DNA of 64,000 nt from Verrucomicrobiia bacterium. GTDB lineage: Bacteria; Verrucomicrobiota; Verrucomicrobiia; Limisphaerales; UBA1319. Shown here one piece after another: positions 4,231-28,676 of this stretch (its first letter is position 1; each line of letters starts with the position of its first letter). The notes below the pieces were generated by a model. That model was not told the DNA's origin, did not search any database, and saw only the letters and a list, made by a program, of their open reading frames with translations. A program made the position numbers and the translations under genes. The stretch spans positions 1,120,001 to 1,184,000 of the forward strand of contig OY760937.1 in the NCBI GenBank assembly GCA_963664225.1, written 5' to 3'.

Positions 4231-5010
4231 TTACGGTTCGAGCTGGAAGAGGGAATCCGGCAGGCGACCGATTATTTGTTCCGGGAGGCGTGCATCCAGG
4301 GAGCCAGGATCAGGTTTTTCGATACCGATATGGTTATCGCAGAAAAGAACGTTCGCCTTTTTAACATGTCTGAAATGTACGGTGGCCTCGGCCCGGTTTG
4401 TGCCAATATAGTAAAATTCCTCGAGCATCGGGTGATCGCGGGAGGCCGGTGCCTGGAAATCGTTGATTTGCGCCGCATCCGCCATGAGGGCCAGTTGTGA
4501 AGGATGGGGGATTTTAGAGACCTGAAACGGCGGCGCGCTCAATGGGGATGAAAGCAGGAAATTGTAGCCGTAGCCATAGGCGGCGCCCACAGCCTTGAGT
4601 TTAAACTGGCTCATGGCGTAATTGAGCGATGGGCAGATGCTGATACCGCGGCCCGTCAGATAGGCGCGAAGGGCCCCCTGGGCAGGATCGAAAGCGCGCT
4701 GGCTTTCATTGCCGCGTTCAAGCCAGCCAAACCAGTAAATATCCCCTCCGTTTGTATAAGCCCCCCGGTAGCGAAAGGCCCGGCCATCATTGTCATCCCA
4801 ATACATGTGAACGGCCATCCCCAGTTGCCGCAAATTCGAGCCGCATTGGACCCGGCGGGCTGATTGGCGGCTGCGGCTTAGCGTGGGCAGGAGCAGGCTT
4901 GCCAGCAATGCGATGATTGCTATGACGACCAGCAATTCAATCAACGTGAACGCAGATATCCGCCGTGTGACTATTTTGCGCAGATTTCCGGTTGTCCAGA
5001 GAATCATCAT
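4231..5010 (-). CDS. Prepilin-type N-terminal cleavage/methylation protein with H-X9-DG-like C-terminus (DUF1559-like pilin)
   Basis: [27 protein letters not shown] class III signal, C..NLRQLG..MY segment, and C-terminal [15 protein letters not shown]. Start ATG 5010 overlaps the upstream stop (ATGA). Confidence 0.9.
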
Positions 5011-5987
5011 GGGAGCACGGCTTTGACTCGATAAAACGCAAAATTGACGGGGGCGTTGGTATCGGTAATGACGATGGGTGCCGTGTCGCCCAAAACCGGG
5101 GTGGCGGCCGTTTGCCAGAAGACCAGGTCCACACTTCTTTCCATCGTGTAGAACCATCGCGGGCTGCCATTGAATGCCGCCTGGTTTTGATTGTTTTGGA
5201 GCACGAATCGCAAATTGCGGATCGGCGGGTCTGGAAACGTCAGGATTAAATTGTCAATGGTGCCTTGCGCAAATAGGGACCCTGCAAAACCGGGTTGCTG
5301 GCCGATATCCGAATAGCTGGTGATGGATAAAGCGTTAATGCGGAAATCCACCGAGGCGTCGGGCAGAAGGACATCCTCAATGGGGCCAAACGGTTCGCCG
5401 TTGAGGGTGATCATTGTGGACAAGGCCTTCTTGGCAGCGGAGTAGGTCATTGTGATGTGGAACAAGCCACCCGGCGTTAGTTCCATTGGAAAATTGAAAG
5501 AAGGAAAGAACCGCGAATTGGTGGTGGAAATGACTGGAGAAATGGTGGCACCGAAACCGGTGTCTGGAAAGTACGTCCATTCAATGAGATTGGGAGTGTT
5601 GGCCGATGTGCCTCGAATAAAACCAGTCTTGAAGGCTTGTTCCAGATTCAAAAAGCCAAAGGCCAGCTCAAAGGCATATGGCTTGTCAGGATCAATGCCA
5701 GCTTGGATGTTGTGCATGACGAGATCAAGATCCAGGCTGAAATCGTCCGCCATACTGACAACCGTGTTGAGCGGATGGTAAAAGAAACTGTTCGAATTGG
5801 AGGAATCCCAAGTGACATCGAGCGCCTGGGATTCAACGTTCCATACAAACAGATTGGTTGCGCCGACCATTTTCCAGCCATTCGGAGCGGGATCACTTGA
5901 AAAATCCTCCCTCAACTCCGCGCCCCATGCCGTGGCAACGCTCAGGGACATCAGAAGGAACAGGGTCGCGAGACGCAATTGTTTCAT
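5007..5987 (-). CDS. Secreted hypothetical protein (beta-sandwich-like) with verrucomicrobial-type C-terminal FYRV domain
   Basis: Sec signal peptide [24 protein letters not shown]-terminus [12 protein letters not shown]...FAFYRV. Confidence 0.8.
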
Positions 5988-6037
5988 AAAACGGCGGATT
6001 TTAAGAAATCTTTCGTATTAGCTCTGTATGCGGGCCG

Positions 6038-6865
6038 TCAATCTCGCACGCGCTTTTTCATGTGCCAACCAAGAAGACACAGGCCGGATGCTAACAATGC
6101 ACTTGTAGCCGGTTCAGGCACCGGCGAAACAGTGGAAAAACCGTCGATTTCATAATAACCGTCCAACACGTCGATTCGGACATATTGAACACTGTCGAGT
6201 TGGACCTTTTCTCCGTGATTGTCGATGGCCCAATCCAGATCATAGCCCGTGCCCCCGGCCGAGCCCGCATAAAGAGCGCGAATTCCGGCCAGATCTTTGC
6301 CGCCGAAATCAGAATCCTTGAGAGCGGGGTTCACGGGCAGAGTGAAGCTGCCAGATCCATCGGTGGGATAAAGCTTATCAAAGACCGGAGCCAGAGAGGA
6401 ATCCAGCGTGTAAAATGTTTGGTTATCCGGGCTGACAGAGATGCGCACCGCGCCCAGGCGTGGATTGAAGATGGAGCCATCTGTAATGCCACCGCCTGAG
6501 AAATCGCCGTTGGTAATACTGAATCCGGCACCTCCGAATACAATGAAATCAACCCCGTATGGATTCGATGGAGAATTGATGGCAGGGACCCCCAACTGCA
6601 CGGTGAGCGTTCCGTTGGTGCCAACGGCCAGCAATTGGCTGTTAAGATAAGGCGGGCTGAAAGGATCAACCGACCCGCCATACACGCCCGGTGTGACCCG
6701 CGAGGGTTCGCCGATGACGCTGGAAGAGTTGGTATAACTTGCAATGTTCGAACGAAGCGCGCCCGGATTGTAGTCCGTGACGGCGCTTGCAAAAGACGCT
6801 GCCTGGTTGGTGGAAACGGTCGTTGCCACGCTGGCTCCCAGAGCCAGCCACGATAGAATTCGCAT
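6038..6865 (-). CDS. PEP-CTERM surface protein with putative BtuH-like cobalamin-binding domain
   Basis: Signal peptide plus C-terminal VPEPATSALLASGLCLLGWHMKKRVRD (PEP, TM helix, basic tail). First gene behind a cobalamin riboswitch. Confidence 0.85.
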   Translation of the reverse strand: MRILSWLALGASVATTVSTNQAASFASAVTDYNPGALRSNIASYTNSSSVIGEPSRVTPGVYGGSVDPFSPPYLNSQLLAVGTNGTLTVQLGVPAINSPSNPYGVDFIVFGGAGFSITNGDFSGGGITDGSIFNPRLGAVRISVSPDNQTFYTLDSSLAPVFDKLYPTDGSGSFTLPVNPALKDSDFGGKDLAGIRALYAGSAGGTGYDLDWAIDNHGEKVQLDSVQYVRIDVLDGYYEIDGFSTVSPVPEPATSALLASGLCLLGWHMKKRVRD

Positions 6866-7018
6866 GATTCAGTTTTTCGTTGGTTCCGCGTTAATGCGGA
6901 GGTTGCATTTTCTGGAGACCAGCGCGGAGTCTGGAAAAAAACCTCCAGACCCCGGCAAAACGGAGAATGAAGGCATCCAACGACCCCGCCGAAAACAGAT
7001 CAGCGGGCTGGCCTCATC

Positions 7019-7330
7019 CTTCTCTTTGACGGAGAAGCGGTTTGTGAAGATCAGGACCTGTAGCAGGTACAAGAAATTCACAAACCTGACGAGCGCAGCC
7101 AAACCGGTATCCTGACTTCGAGCTATTGCTTGAGAAGTGTCCGGCACACTGGAATGCATGATTCCGGAGTGTGCGAACGCCATTCAAACATGGACCTTGC
7201 TCCCGCCTTCCCAGTCCTGTGACCAGTGGCATCATGGAGCTTGTAACCCGTTACAGTGGCGCAACCGTCCCCGATTTTCACGGGGTTCCCTGACATTTTG
7301 CTGCGTATCAACACGCAAACCTCCACAAGT
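7019..7330 (-). ncRNA. Cobalamin (B12) riboswitch, long AdoCbl-type, with candidate distal P13
   Basis: Minus strand reads AGGGAA-CCCCGTGAAAATCGGGG-ACGGTTGCGCCACTGT...GCCACTG..ACTGGGAAGG...AGTCAGGATACCGG (B12 box about 7104-7118). P7 CGGGTTA/TAGCTCG and P8 GCTCC/GGAGC pair. Hairpin CTTCTC-CGTCAAA-GAGAAG at 7019-7037. Confidence 0.93.
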
Positions 7331-7364
7331 TACTCAGAACTTGTGACACGAGGTCTGCGATCTT

Positions 7365-8561
7365 TCAAAGAGCGGGATTATGGTGGATTGGCTCCTCTGC
7401 GTTGCCAAGAATAAAAGAGCGTGAAATTTTACCTCCGCGTTCGATGTGGTGAAGATTGCCGCGCCACTGCACATGGTCGATGAACAAGGAGAAAGACCAC
7501 AGGAGTGACTGAAGCAGATCCTTGATGAGAACGGGCCAGAAAAAGGCGGCGGTGGGTTGTGTGCGGGTTAATCGTTGTTGTAAAGCCGCGGCTGCGGTAA
7601 TGCGAATCCACAGACAGGCGGCGGCGGCACTTAGAACTGAGAGGCTGGGACTTGTGGCGAGCCAGAGAAGGGGCCAGAGGCTGCCAGTGCTCAATATGCT
7701 GAAGAAATAGGGCAGGGGTTTGCAGTGTCGTATGGTGATGGCCCATCGCAGTTGGTGGATCCAGACTTCCCGCCAGGTCATTGGCGAGGACCAGCATTCC
7801 ACGGGGATGGTGCTAAGGATGATTTTTCCACCCTGGCGATGTATGAGTTGGCCCAGTTCGTAATCATCAGCCAGATGGTCTTTCAAGGCGTGGAAACCGC
7901 CAATCTCATGGATCCATTTGCGCGTGGTGGCCATGACGGCACCGAGGGCGAAATCCATCGGGCCGAGATTCCGGCTCTGGCATACCTGGCTCCAGAAATC
8001 CGCATTGATGGCCACCGCTTCCCAATGCATGGCGGGCGTATGTGGATTCGCCAGACAATAGAAACAGTTTACCAGACCTGTTTCCGAATCTTGAAAAGGA
8101 GGCGCCAGGTGGGTGAGAAGATCCGTGGGTGCGAGGACATCCGCATCGGAAACGACCAACAGATCGTGTTTGGCCAGTTTTTCGAGCTGTATTAAAGTGG
8201 ATACCTTCGCATTGGCGCCGAGTGTCGGATCGCAGATAATCAAGCGCGCGTCGATGTGGGGATGTTTTTGAATCAGGCGTCGGACCACATTGCAGACGGG
8301 GTCTTTTTCTGTAGCCACGCCGAAAAGGATTTGCACGGGACCGGCATATGTCTGGCTAAACCAGCTTTTGAGGCATTTCAAAGTGGAGATTTCGACCCCC
8401 TTGAGAGGTTTTAAGACCGAGATTCCAGGGGAAAACTCCACGACAGGCGGACGTTGATGCAGGGGAAAACGACGTGCCGCACTCCATTGCCAAAGTACAA
8501 TGGCGCAACTTAAAAAGGCCAAAAAGCCAAGTATAACGGTTAAAACCATTCCAGATGCCAT
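7365..8561 (-). CDS. hpnI: Hopanoid-associated glycosyltransferase HpnI / ceramide glucosyltransferase family
   Basis: N-terminal TM; ISVLKPLKG, GANAKVSTL, SDADV, LADDYELG and HQLRWA (QxxRW-like) motifs; C-terminal TMs. Confidence 0.75.
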   Translation of the reverse strand: MASGMVLTVILGFLAFLSCAIVLWQWSAARRFPLHQRPPVVEFSPGISVLKPLKGVEISTLKCLKSWFSQTYAGPVQILFGVATEKDPVCNVVRRLIQKHPHIDARLIICDPTLGANAKVSTLIQLEKLAKHDLLVVSDADVLAPTDLLTHLAPPFQDSETGLVNCFYCLANPHTPAMHWEAVAINADFWSQVCQSRNLGPMDFALGAVMATTRKWIHEIGGFHALKDHLADDYELGQLIHRQGGKIILSTIPVECWSSPMTWREVWIHQLRWAITIRHCKPLPYFFSILSTGSLWPLLWLATSPSLSVLSAAAACLWIRITAAAALQQRLTRTQPTAAFFWPVLIKDLLQSLLWSFSLFIDHVQWRGNLHHIERGGKISRSFILGNAEEPIHHNPAL

Positions 8562-8765
8562 TTAGCAGGTAAATCGCCATTATGGCGAGGAAAGAATCGA
8601 CAGATTTGCAGTGCCAACGGCCAGAATGGGATATGCAGCGGTATTACAATTGATCGAGGGCTGTGACGCACAAGATCTCCTCCAAAGTGATCTTACTGCT
8701 CAAGGCCTGCTTTAAACCGTTCTGGCACAGGTTATGTGGGTATTGTGACGAATGGCTCAATGGTT

Positions 8766-9203
8766 TCATTGAACAGGTTGGACGTTCATGTCCAGCCAAT
8801 AATGGAGGGTTTCTCTTAGCAGATTTGAAAACTCGATAAAATCGACCGGTTTGCGCAGGTAACTATTGGCTCCCCGCCGGAAGCTCTCCTGAACATCTTT
8901 CTCTTCGGTCGAACAACTCAAAACGATCACGATCAAGGAGCGGGTTCGATCATCGGCCCTGAGTCGTCGAAGCACTTCGAGACCGTCCATTTTTGGAAGT
9001 TTTAAATCCAAAAAGACCAAGTCGGGCATGTGAGTGTTTAAGACACCTTCAAGGGCGGCTTTGCCCGTAAGAAAATCAATGGCTTCGACACCGTCCCGGG
9101 CGACAAGAAATTCCTGTTGAGCACGGTTGTTCTTCAAGGCCTGTTTGCATAACATGACATCATCAGGATTGTCTTCCACCAGCATGATGATTTTGTCGTT
9201 CAT
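8766..9203 (-). CDS. Single-domain response regulator (Rcp1-like receiver)
   Basis: LVEDNPDD, LDLKLPKMDG and GANSYLRKPVDF. Confidence 0.92.
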   Translation of the reverse strand: MNDKIIMLVEDNPDDVMLCKQALKNNRAQQEFLVARDGVEAIDFLTGKAALEGVLNTHMPDLVFLDLKLPKMDGLEVLRRLRADDRTRSLIVIVLSCSTEEKDVQESFRRGANSYLRKPVDFIEFSNLLRETLHYWLDMNVQPVQ

Positions 9204-20951: not shown

Positions 20952-23900
20952 TCAGGGCAGTTGCGGAGTCCGCACCCGGTAATATCGATTGGTTAGAGTG
21001 TCGGGATCGGTGATTTGGATCAGGCGCGTCGGTGGTCCTGAAACCGCAGGAACGTCCACCAGCCGTTGCCAGGAACCAGGCGTTAGCGAATCGCTGAACT
21101 CAATGGTGTAAGATTTCTCTGCCATTGCGGAGAAGGTCAATGTCAGCGAATTCCCCCTGGCTACCTTCAGGCTCAACTCACTGGTTGGATCGAGAGGATT
21201 GGTTCCGGCCAGGTATTCCTGGAGGTTGGTCATGCCATCGTGATCCGGATCGGCTCCCGGTGCCGCCTCGGCGTTGGAGTAGGAGCCAAAGTACAGAATC
21301 TGCCAGGCGTCAGGTAAACCGTCGTTGTTGGCGTCCACCGGGGCGCTGGTATTGGGTTGGCCGGGGGTCGGAACGGCGGTGAACCAATTCGCGGGATCAT
21401 TTCCATAGGCAGACAACGTCTGACGCTGCAGAGAGAAGCCTGTGCCCATGGCGCCCATGGACCAGGGCAATGTGCCAGAATAGCGAACCTCCTCCACCAG
21501 GACATAAGGGACATATCCCGCGTCGGGATGCGGCGCGACTTGCGGAGCATCGGGTCTGTAGAGGGCAACCTTGTCGCTGGAATTCCCCAGGTGACCGGTG
21601 TAAGGCCCGTAAATCGGGACGTCGGCGCTGGCTGGATAGCGGTTGCGGAATGCTTGCAGGGCGAGGGGATCCGCTGGATCGATGTTGACCAGCAGTAAAC
21701 GTCCTCCGGCGGGCAACGAGACATTCTGTTGGAATGTATAGCCCACACCGCCCTTGATCATCCAGGTGTTGGTGGAAGCCGCGGGATCAAAGAGAACCGC
21801 TGTGGCTGTCGAGATGTTTTGCAGCTCGATGAATTCATCGAGCGTGTTGTCCTCGCCATCGGCGAAGGTCGGCGGAAAGAACATGATTTCACTGATGACC
21901 ACCGGGCCGATCAGCGGCGAAGCGTTGGCAGCGCCCGTGCCCGTGCGGAATTGCTCGACTGTCTGGGGATGATCCATCCCGAAGGTGGTGGCGCTCATGG
22001 GAACCAGATCCACTTGGCCGATGCTGTTGGTATGGCGACCGAAGGAGACCCCGTTGGCGCCAGCGCCGAAAGATTTCACGGCGCGATATCCGGTCATTGT
22101 TCCATCCGGCAGCGCTTCGGACAGGCAGACGGAATCCCCATGGGCGGAGTTAAACGTGAACGGAAGGCCCGAGCCATTCGTGGGGCTGAACTGGTATTCA
22201 TAGAAGACAATGTAGCCGTGCGCCGGAATGGAGGTGCCGCTGGGAATCTGATATTTTTTGGGCGACTCCTGAACATTGCTCAGGAACCAACCGCTCAAAT
22301 CCACCGGGGCCGCGCCATCATTGTAGAATTCAACCGCATCTTCCAGCGGCGGATCGGTGTGGGTGAGGACTTCGTTAACCACCACACCATTCAAGGGTAG
22401 GTAGTTGCTCGTGCCGGGTGTTGCGCTGGTGGCAAAGCGGACGACGTTTGTCGATCCATCCGGGAATCGTCCCTCGGAGACGCCGGTCTGTTGAGTGGCG
22501 AACGAGACGGCCGTGATCAATGTTTCCGCGGATGAAAAGAGGCCTATGGTTTCGCCCGTCTTACTCAGTTTTAAGTTAACATGATCCGCGCCTGAATTGA
22601 GGCTGCCATCCGCAAGGAACTGGATGTAGCCATGAATTCCCGAGCCAATAAATGACAACGGCGGAACAGGCGAGAGCGTCTTTTGTGTCAGGTTGTCCGT
22701 GAAGCACATGCGCCCCAGAGCCACTGGCTGGGCGCCGCTGTTAAACAGCTCGAACCAGTCGCTTCCACTCGCGGGATCCGCCATCCACTCGTTAACGATC
22801 AGTCCGGCGGCGGTTCCCAGTCCGGCGGCACTGTTCATGGCGACGGGTGTGGGCACATTAAGCGTCCAGGTGCCTGTGCCATCCGGCACGCGCCCAATGG
22901 AGTAATCCGGGGTCTGCAGGCCAAAGGTAATGGCGTCTATCAGTCCACCGCCGTTGGTCGCGCTGTTGAACAGGAACACGGATGTCCCTTTGGCCGAAAG
23001 GTTGAAGCCCGTATTGTCCGCTGAGGCCGGTTGGTTGCTATCGCAATAAAGAAGCAGGAACCCATTGGCGGGAACGAGCGTATTGGTCGCGAAAACGAAT
23101 TTGCGCGGGATGTTGGGATCATCGCTGAGGCTTAAACCCGCCAGGTTGATTTGGTTGGTCGAGGTGTTGGCCAACTCGATCCAATCGGATGTGCTTCCGT
23201 TGGCATTGGTGATCGACTCATTGCTGGCGAGTATTTCGTTGAGAACCACCGGCACGCCTTCCGTGGTGGTGGTGATGATGTTGGTGGTGTAATGCACCGC
23301 GGATAGTTGCATGCCAAACACGTCGTCGGAACTGCTTCCATTGACCTGGTGAACCTCCACAGCGATGACGTTGTCACCCACTACTGGCTGATTCGTTAAA
23401 ATGAGAAATTCCGGCGCGCCTTCATTAGGCTGATCCCCCGCGGTTGTCGCGTAGGTAACCACATCGGGCATCCGCAACGAGCCTGAGCGAACGCCATTCA
23501 GGTAATACACCGCTCCGTCATCCACAAAGTTGGTTGAGACCAGGACAATATTGTCCAGGCTTCCGTCCCATTGGAAATGAGTGCGATAATACACGGTAAT
23601 ATGACCGTTGGCCTGGGCCGGGGCAGGGATGGTGGTCACGAAGGGATACGGGTACTCCAGCGGAGTTGTCTCGCGGCCAAAGAGTCCCGTGCCGGTTGGC
23701 CAGGTGGAATCTGCGAATGCCGGTTCGCGCCAGGCGGTGCCGCGATCCGTGCCGGAGTTGTCGTAGCGCCAGGTGTTCGTAATGTCGAGCAGCTTGATGA
23801 CCTGCGAGGTGATATTGGTGACTGAAATTGTGCCTCCGTTCGCGACGGCATTGGGGCCGCCGGCGGTTGGCTGCGGGAAGCTCACAATGACATCACTGCC

Positions 23901-26900
23901 GCTGGGGCTGCGGCCCTGGGAGACGTCTGTGGACTGGGCGCCATAAGTGATGGTGTCGATCGGATTTAACAGGGCATCCGAAAGCAGAATGATTCCAACA
24001 TTCGGATTGAGCTTGAAGTTCAGATGATTTGCCCCCTGGGCGGGAGTGGCGTCCGCCACGAAGGACAGGTATCCACCGGCATCGATGTAACTGAATGCGG
24101 CCAGCCGATTGAGGTTTGGAGCGCCCTCGGCATTGGACAGATAGCAGCCTTGGAGGGCCACAGGATTGGTGGCCGTATTGTAAAGCTCCACAAAATCATT
24201 GTTCGCCAGGAACATGGAATCCGCCAGCCATTCGTTGATTTTCAAGTGATGGGGATCGTCCAGTGCCAGCGCAATGTTTTCACCTCCGAATGTGGGACGG
24301 CACAGAACCCAGGTGCCGTCCGCGGCGCGGCCCAGGGAGTGATCCGTTATTTGCTGGCCAAAGGTAATGGTGTCCAGAAGCCCGCCGCCGCGAATGCTTG
24401 AGTCATGGAGGAACAGGCTGTCTCCCGTTTGTTTCAAGGCGTAGCCAAGGTGCAAACCGTCCGTGCTGAACGCGCTGTCACCATACAAAACAAGGTATGC
24501 CCCAGCCGCCAGGGTGGTCCCAGGCGAGAAGGTGAAGGCGTAAGGTTGGAGGGAACTGGTGCTCAGGCCCATTCCCGATAAATCGACCGTGCTGGTCCCG
24601 TAGTTATGGATCTCGACCAGGTCCGGCGTGGTCCCGGCGTGGATCAATGCCGCTGAGTTCTTGGCCAGGATTTCATTGATCCGTATTGCGGGTGTTGTGG
24701 CGGGTGTCCAGGAGCTGTCGACCACCCATGTTCCGGTCGAGGTGATGATGGTCTCTTCACCCAACGCCGGATCATCCTGGTACCAACCGGAATCGCGTTT
24801 GCCAGTCACATCCACGGAATGGGGCCCGTTGGCAAGATTGGCAACCGTGATGGGCGTGGCAATGCCCGTTTCCGCGCTCCAGGCGCCGCCGTCCAGCCGC
24901 CATTTGTAGGCGACATAGCCCGATCCCTGTGGAAATCCCGCCGTGGGGATGCCAGATCCAGTCCGATTTACACCCACAAAGAGTGTGGCCGTGGTGAGGT
25001 TGTTGGTTCCTTTGGGGGCTCCCGAAATGGAGGCGCCAATCGGAATATTTCCACCCATGTCGCGACCATTGGGGCCGGTTCCACGCGCTGGGGAGCCAGG
25101 CAGCAGGCTCAACCAATCCCGCATGATTTGGGCGTCCTGCCAGTTGGTGAAGAAGGTTTCCGACACCTTTGGAATGTATGTCAGCAGGGGAGCGATTACC
25201 TGGTTGTTCGTACCCGGACCGGTCCATGCAAAAGGCAGGATGTTATTATTGAAGGTCACAGTCACCTGCGCCGGATCGTAATTGCGCACCAGTTGCTCGG
25301 CATCCTGAACAATATTTCCCTCAAGGTAATAGCCCTTGCCGAACGTGGTGATTGAAGGAGTGGTGTCGCGGACATTGACCACTCCCGAGTCGAAATCCTG
25401 TCCTCCGGCTTTGGTGGCGTGGATGATGGTGTTGTTGATCAGGGTGAAGTAATTCCCTTCCTTGATGGTGGCGGCGTTGTCGCAGTCGAAGAAGATGTTG
25501 CCGATGGCCGTGATCTCGGATGTATGCCCTGAATCGGCGCCTCCAGATATTGCGCTGGAACTGTCTGGAGAACCATTCCTGTGATTGTGCAGGAAAATGT
25601 TGCCCTCGATCCAGGCATCCGTGCCGTCCAGATCGAGGATGTCGTCACTGGCTCCCGCAAAGACGTTGTTGTAATACTGGATGATGGGCTGGCCCAGATC
25701 GCGATTGCCCCCGGTGAAATCCATGATGTCGTTATAACCCGTGGTCGTGCCAAAGAAACACTCCCGCACGATGCCCCGTCCGCCTGCCTTGACCCCGCCT
25801 GTGCCATGGAGCAATTCAAAGGGAGCCGTCGTGGTCGGAAAGACGCAGTGACTGAGCAGGAACGAGCTGCCATCCAGTGCGACATACTGGTGGGTGGTGG
25901 TTCCAAAAGTGGCGTGATCGAGGTAAATCGTGCCTCCGGCAACCTCGATGCAGGTTGTTCCGTTGCCCTCGAAGTGGACATAAGCCAGACGGGTCTCCGG
26001 TGAACCCACCGCGCCATCGATTGTCATGCCGCCCCAACTCACGCCAGTCCCGGGAGTCGTGGTGAAGAGGATGGGCTGCGTGTCCGTCCCTTCGGCTACG
26101 ATGCGACCGCCGTTGGCAACGACGATGTTCACACCGGAACCGAGATAAACCGTCGTGCCCGGTTCGATGGTGAGCGTGCTGCCGCTGTTCACGGTAAGGC
26201 TCGAGGTAATATTATAAGGCCCGCCTGCTGCGGTCCAGGTGGTGTTGGCGGCAATCGCGCCTCCCTCGGTTTGAACCGAGCCATCGTCATACCAGATGTC
26301 CGAATAGGTCCGGGCGCGTTCAATGCCATTCGCGTCGAGCGATTGAACCAGGACGTGGTTGATGCCCGGGGTCAGCGGCACATTGCTGATGGACCAGGTT
26401 CCCTCCCAAGCCACCCAGGCGGCGGCGATTCCATTGACCTTTACGCTGCGGGTGTCAATCGCGTTGGCGGCGCCCGTCAGCGAAACACTCCCAGTGGTTG
26501 TGTGGGGATAACCGCTCTGAACCGCCAGTGCATTTGAAACGGATAAGGAAAGGGGGATTTGAGAGAGCACCCAATTGACCTGCGCGGCGTTATACGCCTT
26601 CATGTTGTCGATTTTGTCCTGGGGCACCCACGAATTGAATAGTCGATCCAGCAGCGAATTCATCTGGTCAGGCCTGAACGCTGTATCCGCCAGTGTTTTA
26701 AGCCAGCGATAATAGATCGGGGCGAACTCGGGTGTCTTCATGAACTTGTTCATGACACTCAGGGCGTTCATCCGGAAAATGCTGTGCCTGGGCGGAATGG
26801 GTGTCAGACCTCGTCCCATCATGGTGTCCATGTCATAGGGTGTGGCTAGAAATCGCGTATCCGCCGCGCCGCGGTAAAGCGCGTAATCATCACCCACGCC

Positions 26901-28676
26901 GTTCGCCAGACAGGTCTCACCGTTATCCAGCAGCGTGTCGATGGCCATGTATTTCATCCATTCGTCCACGTTGATGCGTTTTTCCATGTCCGCCACGTAA
27001 TTCGATGGGGAATGGCCATTAACGCTATTGAGCACGGCAATCAGATCGATCAGATCGGACCAATCATTCTGAAGGGTGTTGTTCTGCTTGAAATAGGTGT
27101 TGGTGTAAACCTCCTGGGCAAAGTCAGCCCCGTGCCAGGTGAGATCCGCAACGTTGTTGGCATACTGGGGATCGCTCAACGCGGCCTGACGGATGCCGCG
27201 ATAGGAATTGCCATTGGGGTCCAGAGGAAACGCGCGCTGGATAAAATCCTTGTTGTATTGTTCGTTGGCGGCGTAAGCGCCGTAGGAATTGTTATCGGGC
27301 AACCCGGAAAGACTCATGAGATTGGTCCCGTTGATGCGAACCTGAACCGCGCGCGATTCTGCCATCGGGATATCGAGACTCCGATAAACCGTGCTGCCCA
27401 GCACCTGGCTGTAACTGTATTGTGAATTAAGATTGATGCCCGTCAGACCTTTCCAGGAACGATCGCCCGGGATGTTGACATGGTAATTATTCGGATTGGA
27501 CAAACGCGTGCCATGCCCGCGATTGCGCACGCCGCAATTGTAGCGGAGCTGGAGCGTGGTGCCGCCAGTCATCACATTGTCAGAAGTAATCCAGGTCGCA
27601 TTCATCTGCGCATCGCTGTCGCCATCGGGAAAATTCCGGCCCATTTGATAAAGTTCAGCGCGTTCGTCTTCCCGCATGATCACGCGGTACACCGGCTGCG
27701 CGCCTGTGTATGAGCTGTTGTCAACTTGATAGAGCAGGTTGGCCGTGCGTGAGGAGGCGGTGGTCAGGCTATACACCGGGTAGGTGCGCGTGTTGTTCTC
27801 CTTGTCCGTTGCCTGGAGGAAAAACTCGATCACGGTCCCGTTGGCCTCTGGCGCCATAAAAGCGCCATAAATGCCGTCGCCCGCCAATCCATCCCCATGT
27901 GTCCCATCATCATACATCGCGACGGCGGTAAAAGACACGGTTCCATCCGTCCGCCAATGAAGCGTGACGGTCACGCCATCGGCGTGTTCGTCTACTATCC
28001 GCGCGCTGATCGCCACGGTATCGGTGGAATTTGGAATCGCTGGTAAATGTTGAACCTCGGTAATAATCGGCGCTGCATTTGTGCGCGCGATGGAATTGGC
28101 GCGCCCCGGTGTGCCGCCAATCTCGGAACTGCTGCCCCAGTTTAGCGCGAAGGTGTTCGGCAGCAGGGGATTGACCAGCTCGAGCGAACTGCCCTGTCCG
28201 TCATGCGGGGTGTTCCATTCCCAGCCGTAGTGTCCGTAAGTGGCAAATCCATTGGTTGTCAACACGCGCGAGGACCAGTCGCCATCATTGTAATACTGCA
28301 CCTCGCTAATCACTTGGCCCAGAACGTCTGCGAGTTGCAGATGGCTACCCATGGGGGGCGTCCATCCCGAGAGGAAATTGGTCACGCCGGGATGCTTCGC
28401 CGCAAATACGGCTCCATCCGCCGCCACCACCAGATATCCCCCGGGGCTGAGAATCGTATTCGCAGGCATGACAAAATGCACTCCTTTAGTGAACTGCCAT
28501 CCGGACAAATTCGCCGCCACTGTCCCCGGATTATACAACTCGACATAACTTTCGAGCAGGTTCTCCGAGGAGGGGTGATACATGATCTCGTTTATGACCA
28601 CGTTCTGTGCGCGGGCGATCATCGCGGATCCCACCAGGAAACCGAGACACGTTAATATTCTTAACAGTTTCTTCAT
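20952..28676 (-). CDS. Giant secreted protein: 7 lamin-tail domains, CotH-kinase-like domain, beta-helix, Ca-binding repeats and C-terminal YYRV domain
   Basis: Signal peptide; seven (V/I)(I/V/L)(N/S)E LTD starts; YDDGTHGDGLAGDGIY; GVRNRG...PYDMD (CotH-like); DDILDLDG..IEGN (beta-helix); DANNDGLPD..DPDHDGMTNLQEYLAGTNP. Confidence 0.88.
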   Translation of the reverse strand: MKKLLRILTCLGFLVGSAMIARAQNVVINEIMYHPSSENLLESYVELYNPGTVAANLSGWQFTKGVHFVMPANTILSPGGYLVVAADGAVFAAKHPGVTNFLSGWTPPMGSHLQLADVLGQVISEVQYYNDGDWSSRVLTTNGFATYGHYGWEWNTPHDGQGSSLELVNPLLPNTFALNWGSSSEIGGTPGRANSIARTNAAPIITEVQHLPAIPNSTDTVAISARIVDEHADGVTVTLHWRTDGTVSFTAVAMYDDGTHGDGLAGDGIYGAFMAPEANGTVIEFFLQATDKENNTRTYPVYSLTTASSRTANLLYQVDNSSYTGAQPVYRVIMREDERAELYQMGRNFPDGDSDAQMNATWITSDNVMTGGTTLQLRYNCGVRNRGHGTRLSNPNNYHVNIPGDRSWKGLTGINLNSQYSYSQVLGSTVYRSLDIPMAESRAVQVRINGTNLMSLSGLPDNNSYGAYAANEQYNKDFIQRAFPLDPNGNSYRGIRQAALSDPQYANNVADLTWHGADFAQEVYTNTYFKQNNTLQNDWSDLIDLIAVLNSVNGHSPSNYVADMEKRINVDEWMKYMAIDTLLDNGETCLANGVGDDYALYRGAADTRFLATPYDMDTMMGRGLTPIPPRHSIFRMNALSVMNKFMKTPEFAPIYYRWLKTLADTAFRPDQMNSLLDRLFNSWVPQDKIDNMKAYNAAQVNWVLSQIPLSLSVSNALAVQSGYPHTTTGSVSLTGAANAIDTRSVKVNGIAAAWVAWEGTWSISNVPLTPGINHVLVQSLDANGIERARTYSDIWYDDGSVQTEGGAIAANTTWTAAGGPYNITSSLTVNSGSTLTIEPGTTVYLGSGVNIVVANGGRIVAEGTDTQPILFTTTPGTGVSWGGMTIDGAVGSPETRLAYVHFEGNGTTCIEVAGGTIYLDHATFGTTTHQYVALDGSSFLLSHCVFPTTTAPFELLHGTGGVKAGGRGIVRECFFGTTTGYNDIMDFTGGNRDLGQPIIQYYNNVFAGASDDILDLDGTDAWIEGNIFLHNHRNGSPDSSSAISGGADSGHTSEITAIGNIFFDCDNAATIKEGNYFTLINNTIIHATKAGGQDFDSGVVNVRDTTPSITTFGKGYYLEGNIVQDAEQLVRNYDPAQVTVTFNNNILPFAWTGPGTNNQVIAPLLTYIPKVSETFFTNWQDAQIMRDWLSLLPGSPARGTGPNGRDMGGNIPIGASISGAPKGTNNLTTATLFVGVNRTGSGIPTAGFPQGSGYVAYKWRLDGGAWSAETGIATPITVANLANGPHSVDVTGKRDSGWYQDDPALGEETIITSTGTWVVDSSWTPATTPAIRINEILAKNSAALIHAGTTPDLVEIHNYGTSTVDLSGMGLSTSSLQPYAFTFSPGTTLAAGAYLVLYGDSAFSTDGLHLGYALKQTGDSLFLHDSSIRGGGLLDTITFGQQITDHSLGRAADGTWVLCRPTFGGENIALALDDPHHLKINEWLADSMFLANNDFVELYNTATNPVALQGCYLSNAEGAPNLNRLAAFSYIDAGGYLSFVADATPAQGANHLNFKLNPNVGIILLSDALLNPIDTITYGAQSTDVSQGRSPSGSDVIVSFPQPTAGGPNAVANGGTISVTNITSQVIKLLDITNTWRYDNSGTDRGTAWREPAFADSTWPTGTGLFGRETTPLEYPYPFVTTIPAPAQANGHITVYYRTHFQWDGSLDNIVLVSTNFVDDGAVYYLNGVRSGSLRMPDVVTYATTAGDQPNEGAPEFLILTNQPVVGDNVIAVEVHQVNGSSSDDVFGMQLSAVHYTTNIITTTTEGVPVVLNEILASNESITNANGSTSDWIELANTSTNQINLAGLSLSDDPNIPRKFVFATNTLVPANGFLLLYCDSNQPASADNTGFNLSAKGTSVFLFNSATNGGGLIDAITFGLQTPDYSIGRVPDGTGTWTLNVPTPVAMNSAAGLGTAAGLIVNEWMADPASGSDWFELFNSGAQPVALGRMCFTDNLTQKTLSPVPPLSFIGSGIHGYIQFLADGSLNSGADHVNLKLSKTGETIGLFSSAETLITAVSFATQQTGVSEGRFPDGSTNVVRFATSATPGTSNYLPLNGVVVNEVLTHTDPPLEDAVEFYNDGAAPVDLSGWFLSNVQESPKKYQIPSGTSIPAHGYIVFYEYQFSPTNGSGLPFTFNSAHGDSVCLSEALPDGTMTGYRAVKSFGAGANGVSFGRHTNSIGQVDLVPMSATTFGMDHPQTVEQFRTGTGAANASPLIGPVVISEIMFFPPTFADGEDNTLDEFIELQNISTATAVLFDPAASTNTWMIKGGVGYTFQQNVSLPAGGRLLLVNIDPADPLALQAFRNRYPASADVPIYGPYTGHLGNSSDKVALYRPDAPQVAPHPDAGYVPYVLVEEVRYSGTLPWSMGAMGTGFSLQRQTLSAYGNDPANWFTAVPTPGQPNTSAPVDANNDGLPDAWQILYFGSYSNAEAAPGADPDHDGMTNLQEYLAGTNPLDPTSELSLKVARGNSLTLTFSAMAEKSYTIEFSDSLTPGSWQRLVDVPAVSGPPTRLIQITDPDTLTNRYYRVRTPQLP

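Follow-up and report, generated by a model that had tools for sequence, protein, structure and literature searches.

What would a bacterium gain from placing two exported surface proteins and a pilin-like protein under the control of a cobalamin riboswitch? This question is raised by an operon in a stretch of 64,000 nucleotides (nt) from a Verrucomicrobiia bacterium (contig OY760937.1, positions 1,120,001 to 1,184,000; hereafter the window), in which three co-oriented open reading frames (ORFs) on the minus strand, designated P1, P2 and P3, lie downstream of such a riboswitch. We conclude that the operon is probably a B12-starvation-induced envelope module for corrinoid capture and uptake in a verrucomicrobial auxotroph that lacks the classical BtuB/BtuCD route. 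A corrinoid-scavenging function had been proposed in a first-pass annotation of this DNA and is supported here by the gene order, the fold of P1, the dedicated pilin and the missing classical route.

The riboswitch and its three genes

The operon comprises the following features.

7085..7335, minus strand: cobalamin riboswitch aptamer (match to the full RF00174 model)
6038..6865, minus strand: P1, 275 amino acids (aa), with a signal peptide, a BtuH-like domain (about residues 19-248) and a PEP-CTERM anchor (248-271)
5007..5987, minus strand: P2, 326 aa, with a signal peptide, a concanavalin-A/legume-lectin-like jelly roll (about residues 20-255) and a C-terminal beta domain of about 70 aa ending in FYRV
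4231..5010, minus strand: P3, 259 aa, a prepilin-type (class III signal) DUF1559 / H-X9-D(N) pilin-like protein of a riboswitch-linked subfamily

The aptamer matches RF00174 on the minus strand with 59.3 bits (gathering score 31.5; E 3.7e-12) over model positions 1-189 of 189. No further RF00174 match was found in this genome, in which 150 of 415 candidates were scored, and the aptamer is also the sole significant match there of an nhmmer profile built from 17 related riboswitches. The start codon of P1 follows the aptamer end at a distance of 220 nt, the P1 stop and the P2 start are separated by a 50-nt gap, and the P2 stop and the P3 start share an ATGA overlap. The gap and the overlap, both read in the sequence, are as first described, and the three different targeting tags attributed to the proteins, namely PEP-CTERM in P1, the FYRV tail in P2 and a class III prepilin signal in P3, were borne out as well.

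Conservation of the module in related genomes

Searching 401 genomes of the phylum with P1 gave a match in 24, and 17 loci in 16 other genomes, belonging to more distant families, were found at E < 1e-9. A same-strand RF00174 match lies upstream of the P1-like gene at 16 of these 17 loci; the 17th (G266:C103) carries a 30.6-bit RF00174 match just below the cut-off. Genome G351 has weaker matches to P1 and to the P2 tail, arranged in the same order as in the window's genome, and the riboswitch is present. P3-like pilins near P1-like genes were sought by profile over six-frame translations, and a full-length pilin was found directly downstream of the P1-like gene at 16 of the 17 loci (163-371 bits). 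The exception, G004:C1, belongs to a genome with a second locus that does carry the pilin. The 12 pilin matches outside the profile set scored 163-320 bits and pilin paralogues without a riboswitch 77-123 bits.

A second census started from P2 and covered the best 80 of 219 loci in species-representative genomes, almost all of them labelled Verrucomicrobiota, Limisphaerales or Pedosphaera. Riboswitches were called here with a profile made from Rfam-verified riboswitches (at least 50 bits, upstream, same strand). They precede P2 at 73 of the 80 loci, and at 71 of the 73 loci whose upstream DNA extends for 1500 nt or more. An Rfam recheck confirmed 18 of 20, the two misses being two weak profile matches. 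P1 stands between riboswitch and P2 at 48 of the 80 loci, and P3 follows P2 within 600 nt at 62 of 73 loci with enough downstream DNA. Among the 66 loci of P2 relatives that could be assessed, 36 have the complete order riboswitch-P1-P2-P3 and 23 have riboswitch-P2-P3 without P1. P1 and P2 are fused in one open frame at 4 of the 48 loci and also in protein P0017, which is 51% identical to P1. The pilin is thus the fixed component of the module, whereas the secreted protein beside it may be P1-like, P2 or both. The check suggested in the first-pass annotation, a count of the riboswitch with the trio in relatives, was thus mostly favourable to it. With the same gene set standing behind the same switch in dozens of relatives, the module probably represents a means of B12 acquisition that has not been described.

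Conversely, the riboswitches of 17 other genomes with the module were surveyed (84 candidates scored per genome, 19 in G134). Of their 21 cobalamin riboswitch matches, 19 are located at the module; the other two lie ahead of nrdB-nrdA and of the gene for a 205-aa PEP-CTERM protein, and no TonB-dependent receptor was found behind any of the 21.

The first of these two is the second cobalamin riboswitch of G128 (L156, G128:C16, 4139-8149; 104.5 bits). It stands before the class I ribonucleotide reductase genes nrdB-nrdA, which is the classical B12-independent isoenzyme arrangement. The PEP-CTERM protein is controlled by the second riboswitch of G332. A conserved fourth gene after P3 was sought in the P2 lineage and not found, as the 51 downstream ORFs that were scanned comprise unrelated genes, either housekeeping or unknown.

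P1, a predicted surface protein with a BtuH-like fold

P1 begins with a Sec-type signal peptide, read from its sequence, and ends with a PEP-CTERM domain (PF07589, residues 248-271; 23.7 bits, cut-off 20.7). With three exosortases in the window's genome (PF09721 matches of 149-168 bits), both the tail and the enzymes expected for a PEP-CTERM/exosortase substrate are present. The gene is single copy in the genome.

A model of P1 was obtained with AlphaFold (AF2) from 17 relatives, with a predicted local distance difference test (pLDDT) value of 81.9. Aligned with VIA-align, this model superposes best on the B12-binding domains of BtuH and BtuG of Bacteroides thetaiotaomicron (7BIZ, 8BLW). For the BtuH2 domain (7biz_B, chain residues 314-593) we obtained a Z score of 12.3 and a root-mean-square deviation (rmsd) of 3.2 over 151 aligned residues, and for the BtuG1 H-domain (8blw_B) a Z score of 12.0 over 163 aligned residues with 23% identity. 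The corresponding Foldseek E values are 3.9e-8 and 3.8e-5, and the structure-based identities to the two domains amount to 18-23%. As modelled, P1 has the globular fold of the BtuH B12-binding domain, and the surface binder postulated in the first-pass annotation thereby gained a plausible candidate, whose binding of corrinoids we infer.

The next unrelated folds are of the generic discoidin/CBM32 type (Z 7-8.6). As this fold class includes sugar binders, it could suit a B12-responsive adhesion system without uptake, in which P2 as adhesin and P3 as pilus component would attach the cell to surfaces or to B12 producers, P1 being a generic carbohydrate-binding module. Against this, P1 matches two solved B12-binding domains well above any of the sugar binders.

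BtuH has been described in gut Bacteroidota and in three Firmicutes, and the parts of these accounts available to us contain no mention of Verrucomicrobia, Planctomycetes, a pilin or PEP-CTERM (PMC8941943, PMC13616437). According to the same excerpts, the corrin, phosphate and metal contacts of BtuH2 include Gln333, Asn399, Phe401, His476, Tyr510, Trp577, Glu406, Asp522, Ser582 and Glu584 (PMC8941943, PMC13616437). The invariant or near-invariant residues of the P1 family, N101, D106, D209, E239 and D241, could form a contact site of the BtuH2 type and are offered as a lead only. Like BtuH, P1 stands behind a cobalamin riboswitch, carries an export signal and occurs in a host apparently unable to make B12; the P1 family also occurs fused to other uptake domains, as does the BtuH family. 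It differs from BtuH in that there is no sequence-level match, that a PEP-CTERM/exosortase anchor replaces the lipoprotein, and that a DUF1559 pilin and the P2 family accompany it instead of a BtuB or BtuG partner.

P2, a lectin-fold protein with a shared tail domain

No Pfam or NCBIfam family matched P2. Its relatives, 143 in the protein collection and 219 in the species-representative genomes, include no named protein among the 143, and a protein-language-model look-up returned only unnamed verrucomicrobial clusters plus one lectin cluster at 0.89. The AF2 model (pLDDT 90.2) contains a jelly roll that aligns with legume lectins (Z 15.7, rmsd 3.3, 201 aligned residues, 8-12% identity). As no Pfam lectin family matches, we regard this as a shared lectin fold rather than family membership.

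Secreted B12 binders with an augmented beta-jellyroll are reported from riboswitch-controlled B12 loci as DUF4465/BtuJ (PMC13398666). P2 resembles them in being a jelly roll with an export signal behind a riboswitch, and differs in that its best fold matches are legume lectins. A relationship to DUF4465 was considered and found no support, since none of 33 P2-family members matches PF14717 at E <= 1; nor are the DUF4465/BtuJ chains (9FCT / 9I2L) or any other B12 binder among the best 50 Foldseek or VIA fold matches to P2.

That the closest folds to P2 are sugar-binding lectins speaks for adhesion without uptake, as does the lack of a transporter gene in the operon in the window's lineage. The same proposal is opposed by the B12-type ATP-binding cassette (ABC) importer that follows the module in other lineages, by the predicted need of the organism for external B12 and by the fact that other riboswitch-controlled uptake genes were not found. 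Taken with the fold of P1, we consider pure adhesion highly improbable.

The C-terminus of P2 reads ...FYRVKAVLP and belongs to a beta domain of about 70 residues (window 5007-5220, residues ~256-326). Ten further ORFs of the genome, ranging from 93 to 2350 aa, carry this tail at their extreme C-terminus; seven of them end in (F/Y)YR(V/I/L/A) and the others in a close variant. The tail probably serves in sorting or anchoring and represents a domain of Verrucomicrobiota that has not been described before.

P3, a riboswitch-linked DUF1559 pilin

The start of P3 was taken as the ATG at 5010, the longest frame extending to 5157. Its N-terminus matches the methylation motif N_methyl (PF07963, 26.9 bits, cut-off 21.2) and TIGR02532 (23.1, cut-off 16.3), with the cleavage motif A-FTLIE, cut after the alanine and with E at +5. 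As a prepilin peptidase (Peptidase_A24) is present in the window's genome, P3 has the class III signal, the glutamate at +5 and the processing enzyme of a prepilin-type protein. The DUF1559 match (PF07596, 30.9 bits, cut-off 23.3) covers residues 47-71 only, that is, profile positions 3-27 of 268. The H-X9-D motif takes the form H-X9-DN in P3 and H-X9-DG in 17 of 18 other aligned members; TIGR04294, which we take to be the name for H-X9-DG, was not among the names returned by our searches. In these three features, the methylation motif, the DUF1559 start and H-X9-D, P3 resembles the DUF1559 / H-X9-DG proteins of the Planctomycetes-Verrucomicrobia-Chlamydiae (PVC) group.

It differs from other DUF1559 proteins in belonging to a subfamily that is tied to the B12 riboswitch. 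A full-length alignment of 19 riboswitch-linked pilins including P3 (alignment A3) has invariant F6 and E10, corresponding to the prepilin F and E+5, and its members have in common a conserved Cys pair, a GY.YN motif (TGYNYN in most) and the H-X9-D motif. The window's genome contains 43 pilin-like matches to the P3-type profile, of which P3 is the highest (117.2 bits, the next 96.9) even when P3 and its closest relative are excluded from the profile. In a tree of 61 pilins, calculated by a quick method, P3 falls into a clade of 21 rows with support of 100. Every one of these rows stems from a riboswitch locus; four had received the label 'other' only for lying more than 700 nt downstream. All 34 rows labelled as riboswitch-linked are found on one side of a single branch, and the label requires 5 changes on the tree versus 20.2 in shuffles, none of 500 shuffles being as low. 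The subfamily is therefore separable by score and tree from the other 42 paralogues, in line with the dedicated pilin that had been postulated from the window.

A dedicated pilin need not serve import. Pseudopilins of type II secretion systems contact their cargo, and P3 may be a dedicated minor pseudopilin of such a system that exports or positions P1 and P2; it would then act outward and still in the service of B12 capture. Apart from the established cargo contact, this is favoured by the best NCBIfam likeness of P3, which is to GspG, confined to the N-terminal helix and well below the cut-off, by the constant company of a secreted partner (P1-like, P2 or both) and by the seven secretin matches in the genome. 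It fits less well that P1 carries its own PEP-CTERM sorting tag, for which three exosortases are available, and P2 a different, shared C-terminal domain.

Another alternative places P3 outside any fibre, with the N-terminus anchored in the inner membrane and the globular domain serving as a periplasmic corrinoid binder that replaces BtuF. The Pfam name of the PF07596 family, SBP_bac_10, would agree with this, whereas the E+5 of the cleavage motif, invariant in 19 of 19 members, points to processing and assembly rather than mere anchoring. Genes adjoining the module elsewhere, described below, bear on both alternatives.

B12 requirement and transport genes of the genome

The window's genome consists of one contig of 5.78 Mb and is 96.35% complete. 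It encodes the B12-dependent methionine synthase MetH (2031.6 bits) and has 12 matches to B12-binding domains, radical S-adenosylmethionine (SAM) enzymes among them, and the MetE family is represented only by a partial match in a 351-aa ORF (45.9 bits). CobS and CbiB/CobD gave no match in this genome. Judged by its gene content, the organism uses B12 and cannot make or finish it.

The absence of a TonB-dependent receptor and an ABC importer, noted at first for the window, extends to the whole genome, in which neither the TonB-dependent barrel (PF00593) nor FecCD (PF01032) has a match. As in the BtuB-TonB and BtuFCD system of Escherichia coli, the cobalamin riboswitch would control the outermost acquisition step. 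Unlike there, no classical receptor or permease was matched in this genome, and none of the 21 riboswitches of other module genomes was seen to precede a TonB-dependent receptor.

Genes adjacent to the module in other lineages

At loci L047 and L052 a fused ABC ATPase-FecCD importer, BtuD-BtuC-like, directly follows the pilin in the same operon, which recalls the E. coli BtuFCD importer. At L050 the pilin is directly followed by a PilN/GspL-like protein and a secretin. The importers fit uptake better than export, and together with the separate sorting tags of P1 and P2 they lead us to regard a purely outward, type II secretion role of P3 as unlikely.

For a BtuF substitute, the position of the pilin directly before the importer at L047 and L052 is attractive, and no Pfam-recognisable BtuF was present in the ORFs scanned beside this importer, a search that was not systematic and hence does not establish the absence of BtuF from these operons. 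The window's genome, which has no FecCD match, was not searched for BtuF. L050, which joins the module to PilN/GspL-like and secretin genes, and the invariant E+5 argue against an unassembled P3, so that we judge a BtuF-like role quite improbable.

Within the riboswitch operon at L046, the pilin is followed by a DUF6580 membrane protein (7660-8172). This family is a candidate for the inner-membrane corrinoid transporter; no mention of it was found in the literature searched. The window's genome has a single DUF6580 copy outside the window (G000:C1:2023495-2024031), and the family was found in G330, G351 and G128 as well, none of these four genomes having a strong FecCD match.

At L073 (G242:C50, 6741-9558), a TonB-dependent receptor of 599 aa (Plug and barrel) is directly followed by a P3-like DUF1559 pilin (123 bits), and no cobalamin riboswitch was found in the 14 kb examined. 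A P3-like pilin can thus also adjoin a classical outer-membrane transporter.

In other lineages P1-like genes are preceded by a secreted domain with the signature W.G.G.N ... AWG.R..G (L053 165-812; L054 12103-13305; L043 4710-5390; L058 10955-13165; L157 1339-1956). It is often a small PEP-CTERM protein, in L058 it forms the N-terminus of a long P1-like protein, and the window's operon contains none.

Proposed mechanism and its weaknesses

We propose that the corrinoid capture and uptake module works as follows. At high intracellular cobalamin the riboswitch would turn the operon off, and at low cobalamin the three proteins would be made. P1 would be exported and anchored through its PEP-CTERM at the cell surface, where its BtuH-like domain may bind corrinoids. 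P2, often fused to P1 in relatives, would be a second surface protein; since the pilin can have P2 as its sole partner, P2 probably binds the same cargo or passes it on. P3 would be processed by the prepilin peptidase and built into a pseudopilus, similar to those of type II secretion or type IV pili, beneath a secretin. This pseudopilus may couple capture at the surface to passage of the outer membrane, which is the most conjectural step of all. The inner-membrane step would be left to a transporter encoded elsewhere, which may be the single DUF6580 protein.

A more far-reaching version, which we offer tentatively and ourselves consider rather unlikely, makes the riboswitch-linked DUF1559 proteins the working part of a TonB-independent import. 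The P3 pseudopilus would carry the corrinoid, directly or received from P1 or P2, through the secretin into the periplasm, and the expansion of DUF1559 in PVC bacteria would represent ligand-specific uptake pilins. Competence systems and type IV pili take up DNA through a secretin, so that a large ligand being drawn into the periplasm by a pilus or pseudopilus is not without precedent, and the window's genome has both secretins and a prepilin peptidase. Unlike in competence pili, the proposed cargo is a 1.3-kDa vitamin or a protein-vitamin complex, and the window's operon has neither a retraction ATPase gene nor an assembly gene linked to it. A complex prediction for P1 (20-250) and P3 (30-244) gave a score of 0.01 (mark 0.32), which carries no weight for or against a contact.

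Several observations weigh against an uptake module. Corrinoid binding, B12-dependent repression and a physical link between binder and pilin are all things that we infer. The BtuH likeness of P1 is one of fold only, as a profile of 17 P1 relatives found no PDB sequence at E <= 10. P2, as modelled, resembles ordinary lectins rather than any known B12 binder. No transporter gene was found after P3 in the window's lineage among the 51 downstream ORFs scanned. As for the pilin, P3 lacks the NKFMRAP-type motif of more distant riboswitch-linked pilins and, when scored with the leave-out profile, is just 20 bits ahead of its paralogues; the branch that unites the riboswitch-linked pilins has a modest support of 82, and the same side includes two long-branch paralogues. 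Finally, TonB-dependent barrels score over the cut-off in 8 of 16 other genomes with the module and are absent from 6 of 16. The description of the operon as one without btuB accordingly holds for the window's genome and not for the module in general.

A replacement of TonB-dependent receptors by the module everywhere is ruled out by the same eight genomes.

Leader, promoter and other features

Three further features surround the riboswitch.

6866..7084, minus strand: long structured leader (expression platform), from folding of the surrounding segment
7426..7453, minus strand: weak sigma-70-like promoter candidate, from a consensus scan (9/12 hexamer matches)
7365-8561, minus strand: HpnI-like glycosyltransferase gene (TIGR03472, 286.8 bits, just below the cut-off of 310)

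Folding of 6850-7110 gave -102.5 kcal/mol (z -5.2 versus shuffles), and a scan of the 220-nt leader revealed nothing terminator-like on the gene strand. Long spacers are typical of this riboswitch family, with a median of 289 nt in loci without P1. The HpnI-like gene stops about 29 nt ahead of the aptamer, so that the operon must be transcribed either from a promoter within this gene or by read-through, with the riboswitch acting on the resulting transcripts. The promoter candidate does sit inside its 3' end; as sigma-70-like sites are no commoner in the region than in shuffles, it is merely a candidate. The early statement that a cobalamin riboswitch leads the operon stands, with the correction that the aptamer lies 220 nt from P1 and closely follows another gene on its upstream side.

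Other RNA elements were seen near relatives of the module. L119 (611-1607), on one Verrucomicrobiia contig, contains five copies of the Acido-Lenti-1 small RNA (RF01687, 38-51 bits) distributed over both strands between about 2.4 and 3.4 kb upstream of the riboswitch. A thiamine pyrophosphate riboswitch lies about 4 kb beyond the pilin at L054 (5241-5341, minus strand; G368). At L148 a SAM riboswitch (8687-8803, plus strand) is located downstream of P2, which is preceded by a weak riboswitch-like match (36 bits); P3 was not found there. The window itself also contains an open reading frame of 2574 aa (20952-28676, minus strand).

Implications for B12 acquisition in Verrucomicrobiota

In the literature searched, with the papers that mention DUF1559 judged from titles and abstract starts, we found neither a published function for DUF1559 nor a link of this family to cobalamin. 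In the parts of the records that were available, work joining a cobalamin riboswitch with PEP-CTERM was confined to a denitrifying reactor, and searches joining pseudopilin, cobalamin and riboswitch, or for H-X9-DG, returned only unrelated work. The same literature gave no description of the route by which the abundant Verrucomicrobiota of soil and freshwater obtain B12.

Microbial communities exchange B12 as a keystone nutrient, and the window's genome appears to need it yet has no match to either classical transporter family that was searched for, the TonB-dependent barrel and FecCD. If the fold predicted for P1 is correct, the BtuH-type B12-binding fold is not confined to gut Bacteroidota. 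P2 represents a new riboswitch-linked protein family, found in at least 70 species-level genomes. For DUF1559, which is among the largest uncharacterised families of PVC bacteria, the module would provide the first ligand-linked clue, with a defined ligand and a defined regulator.

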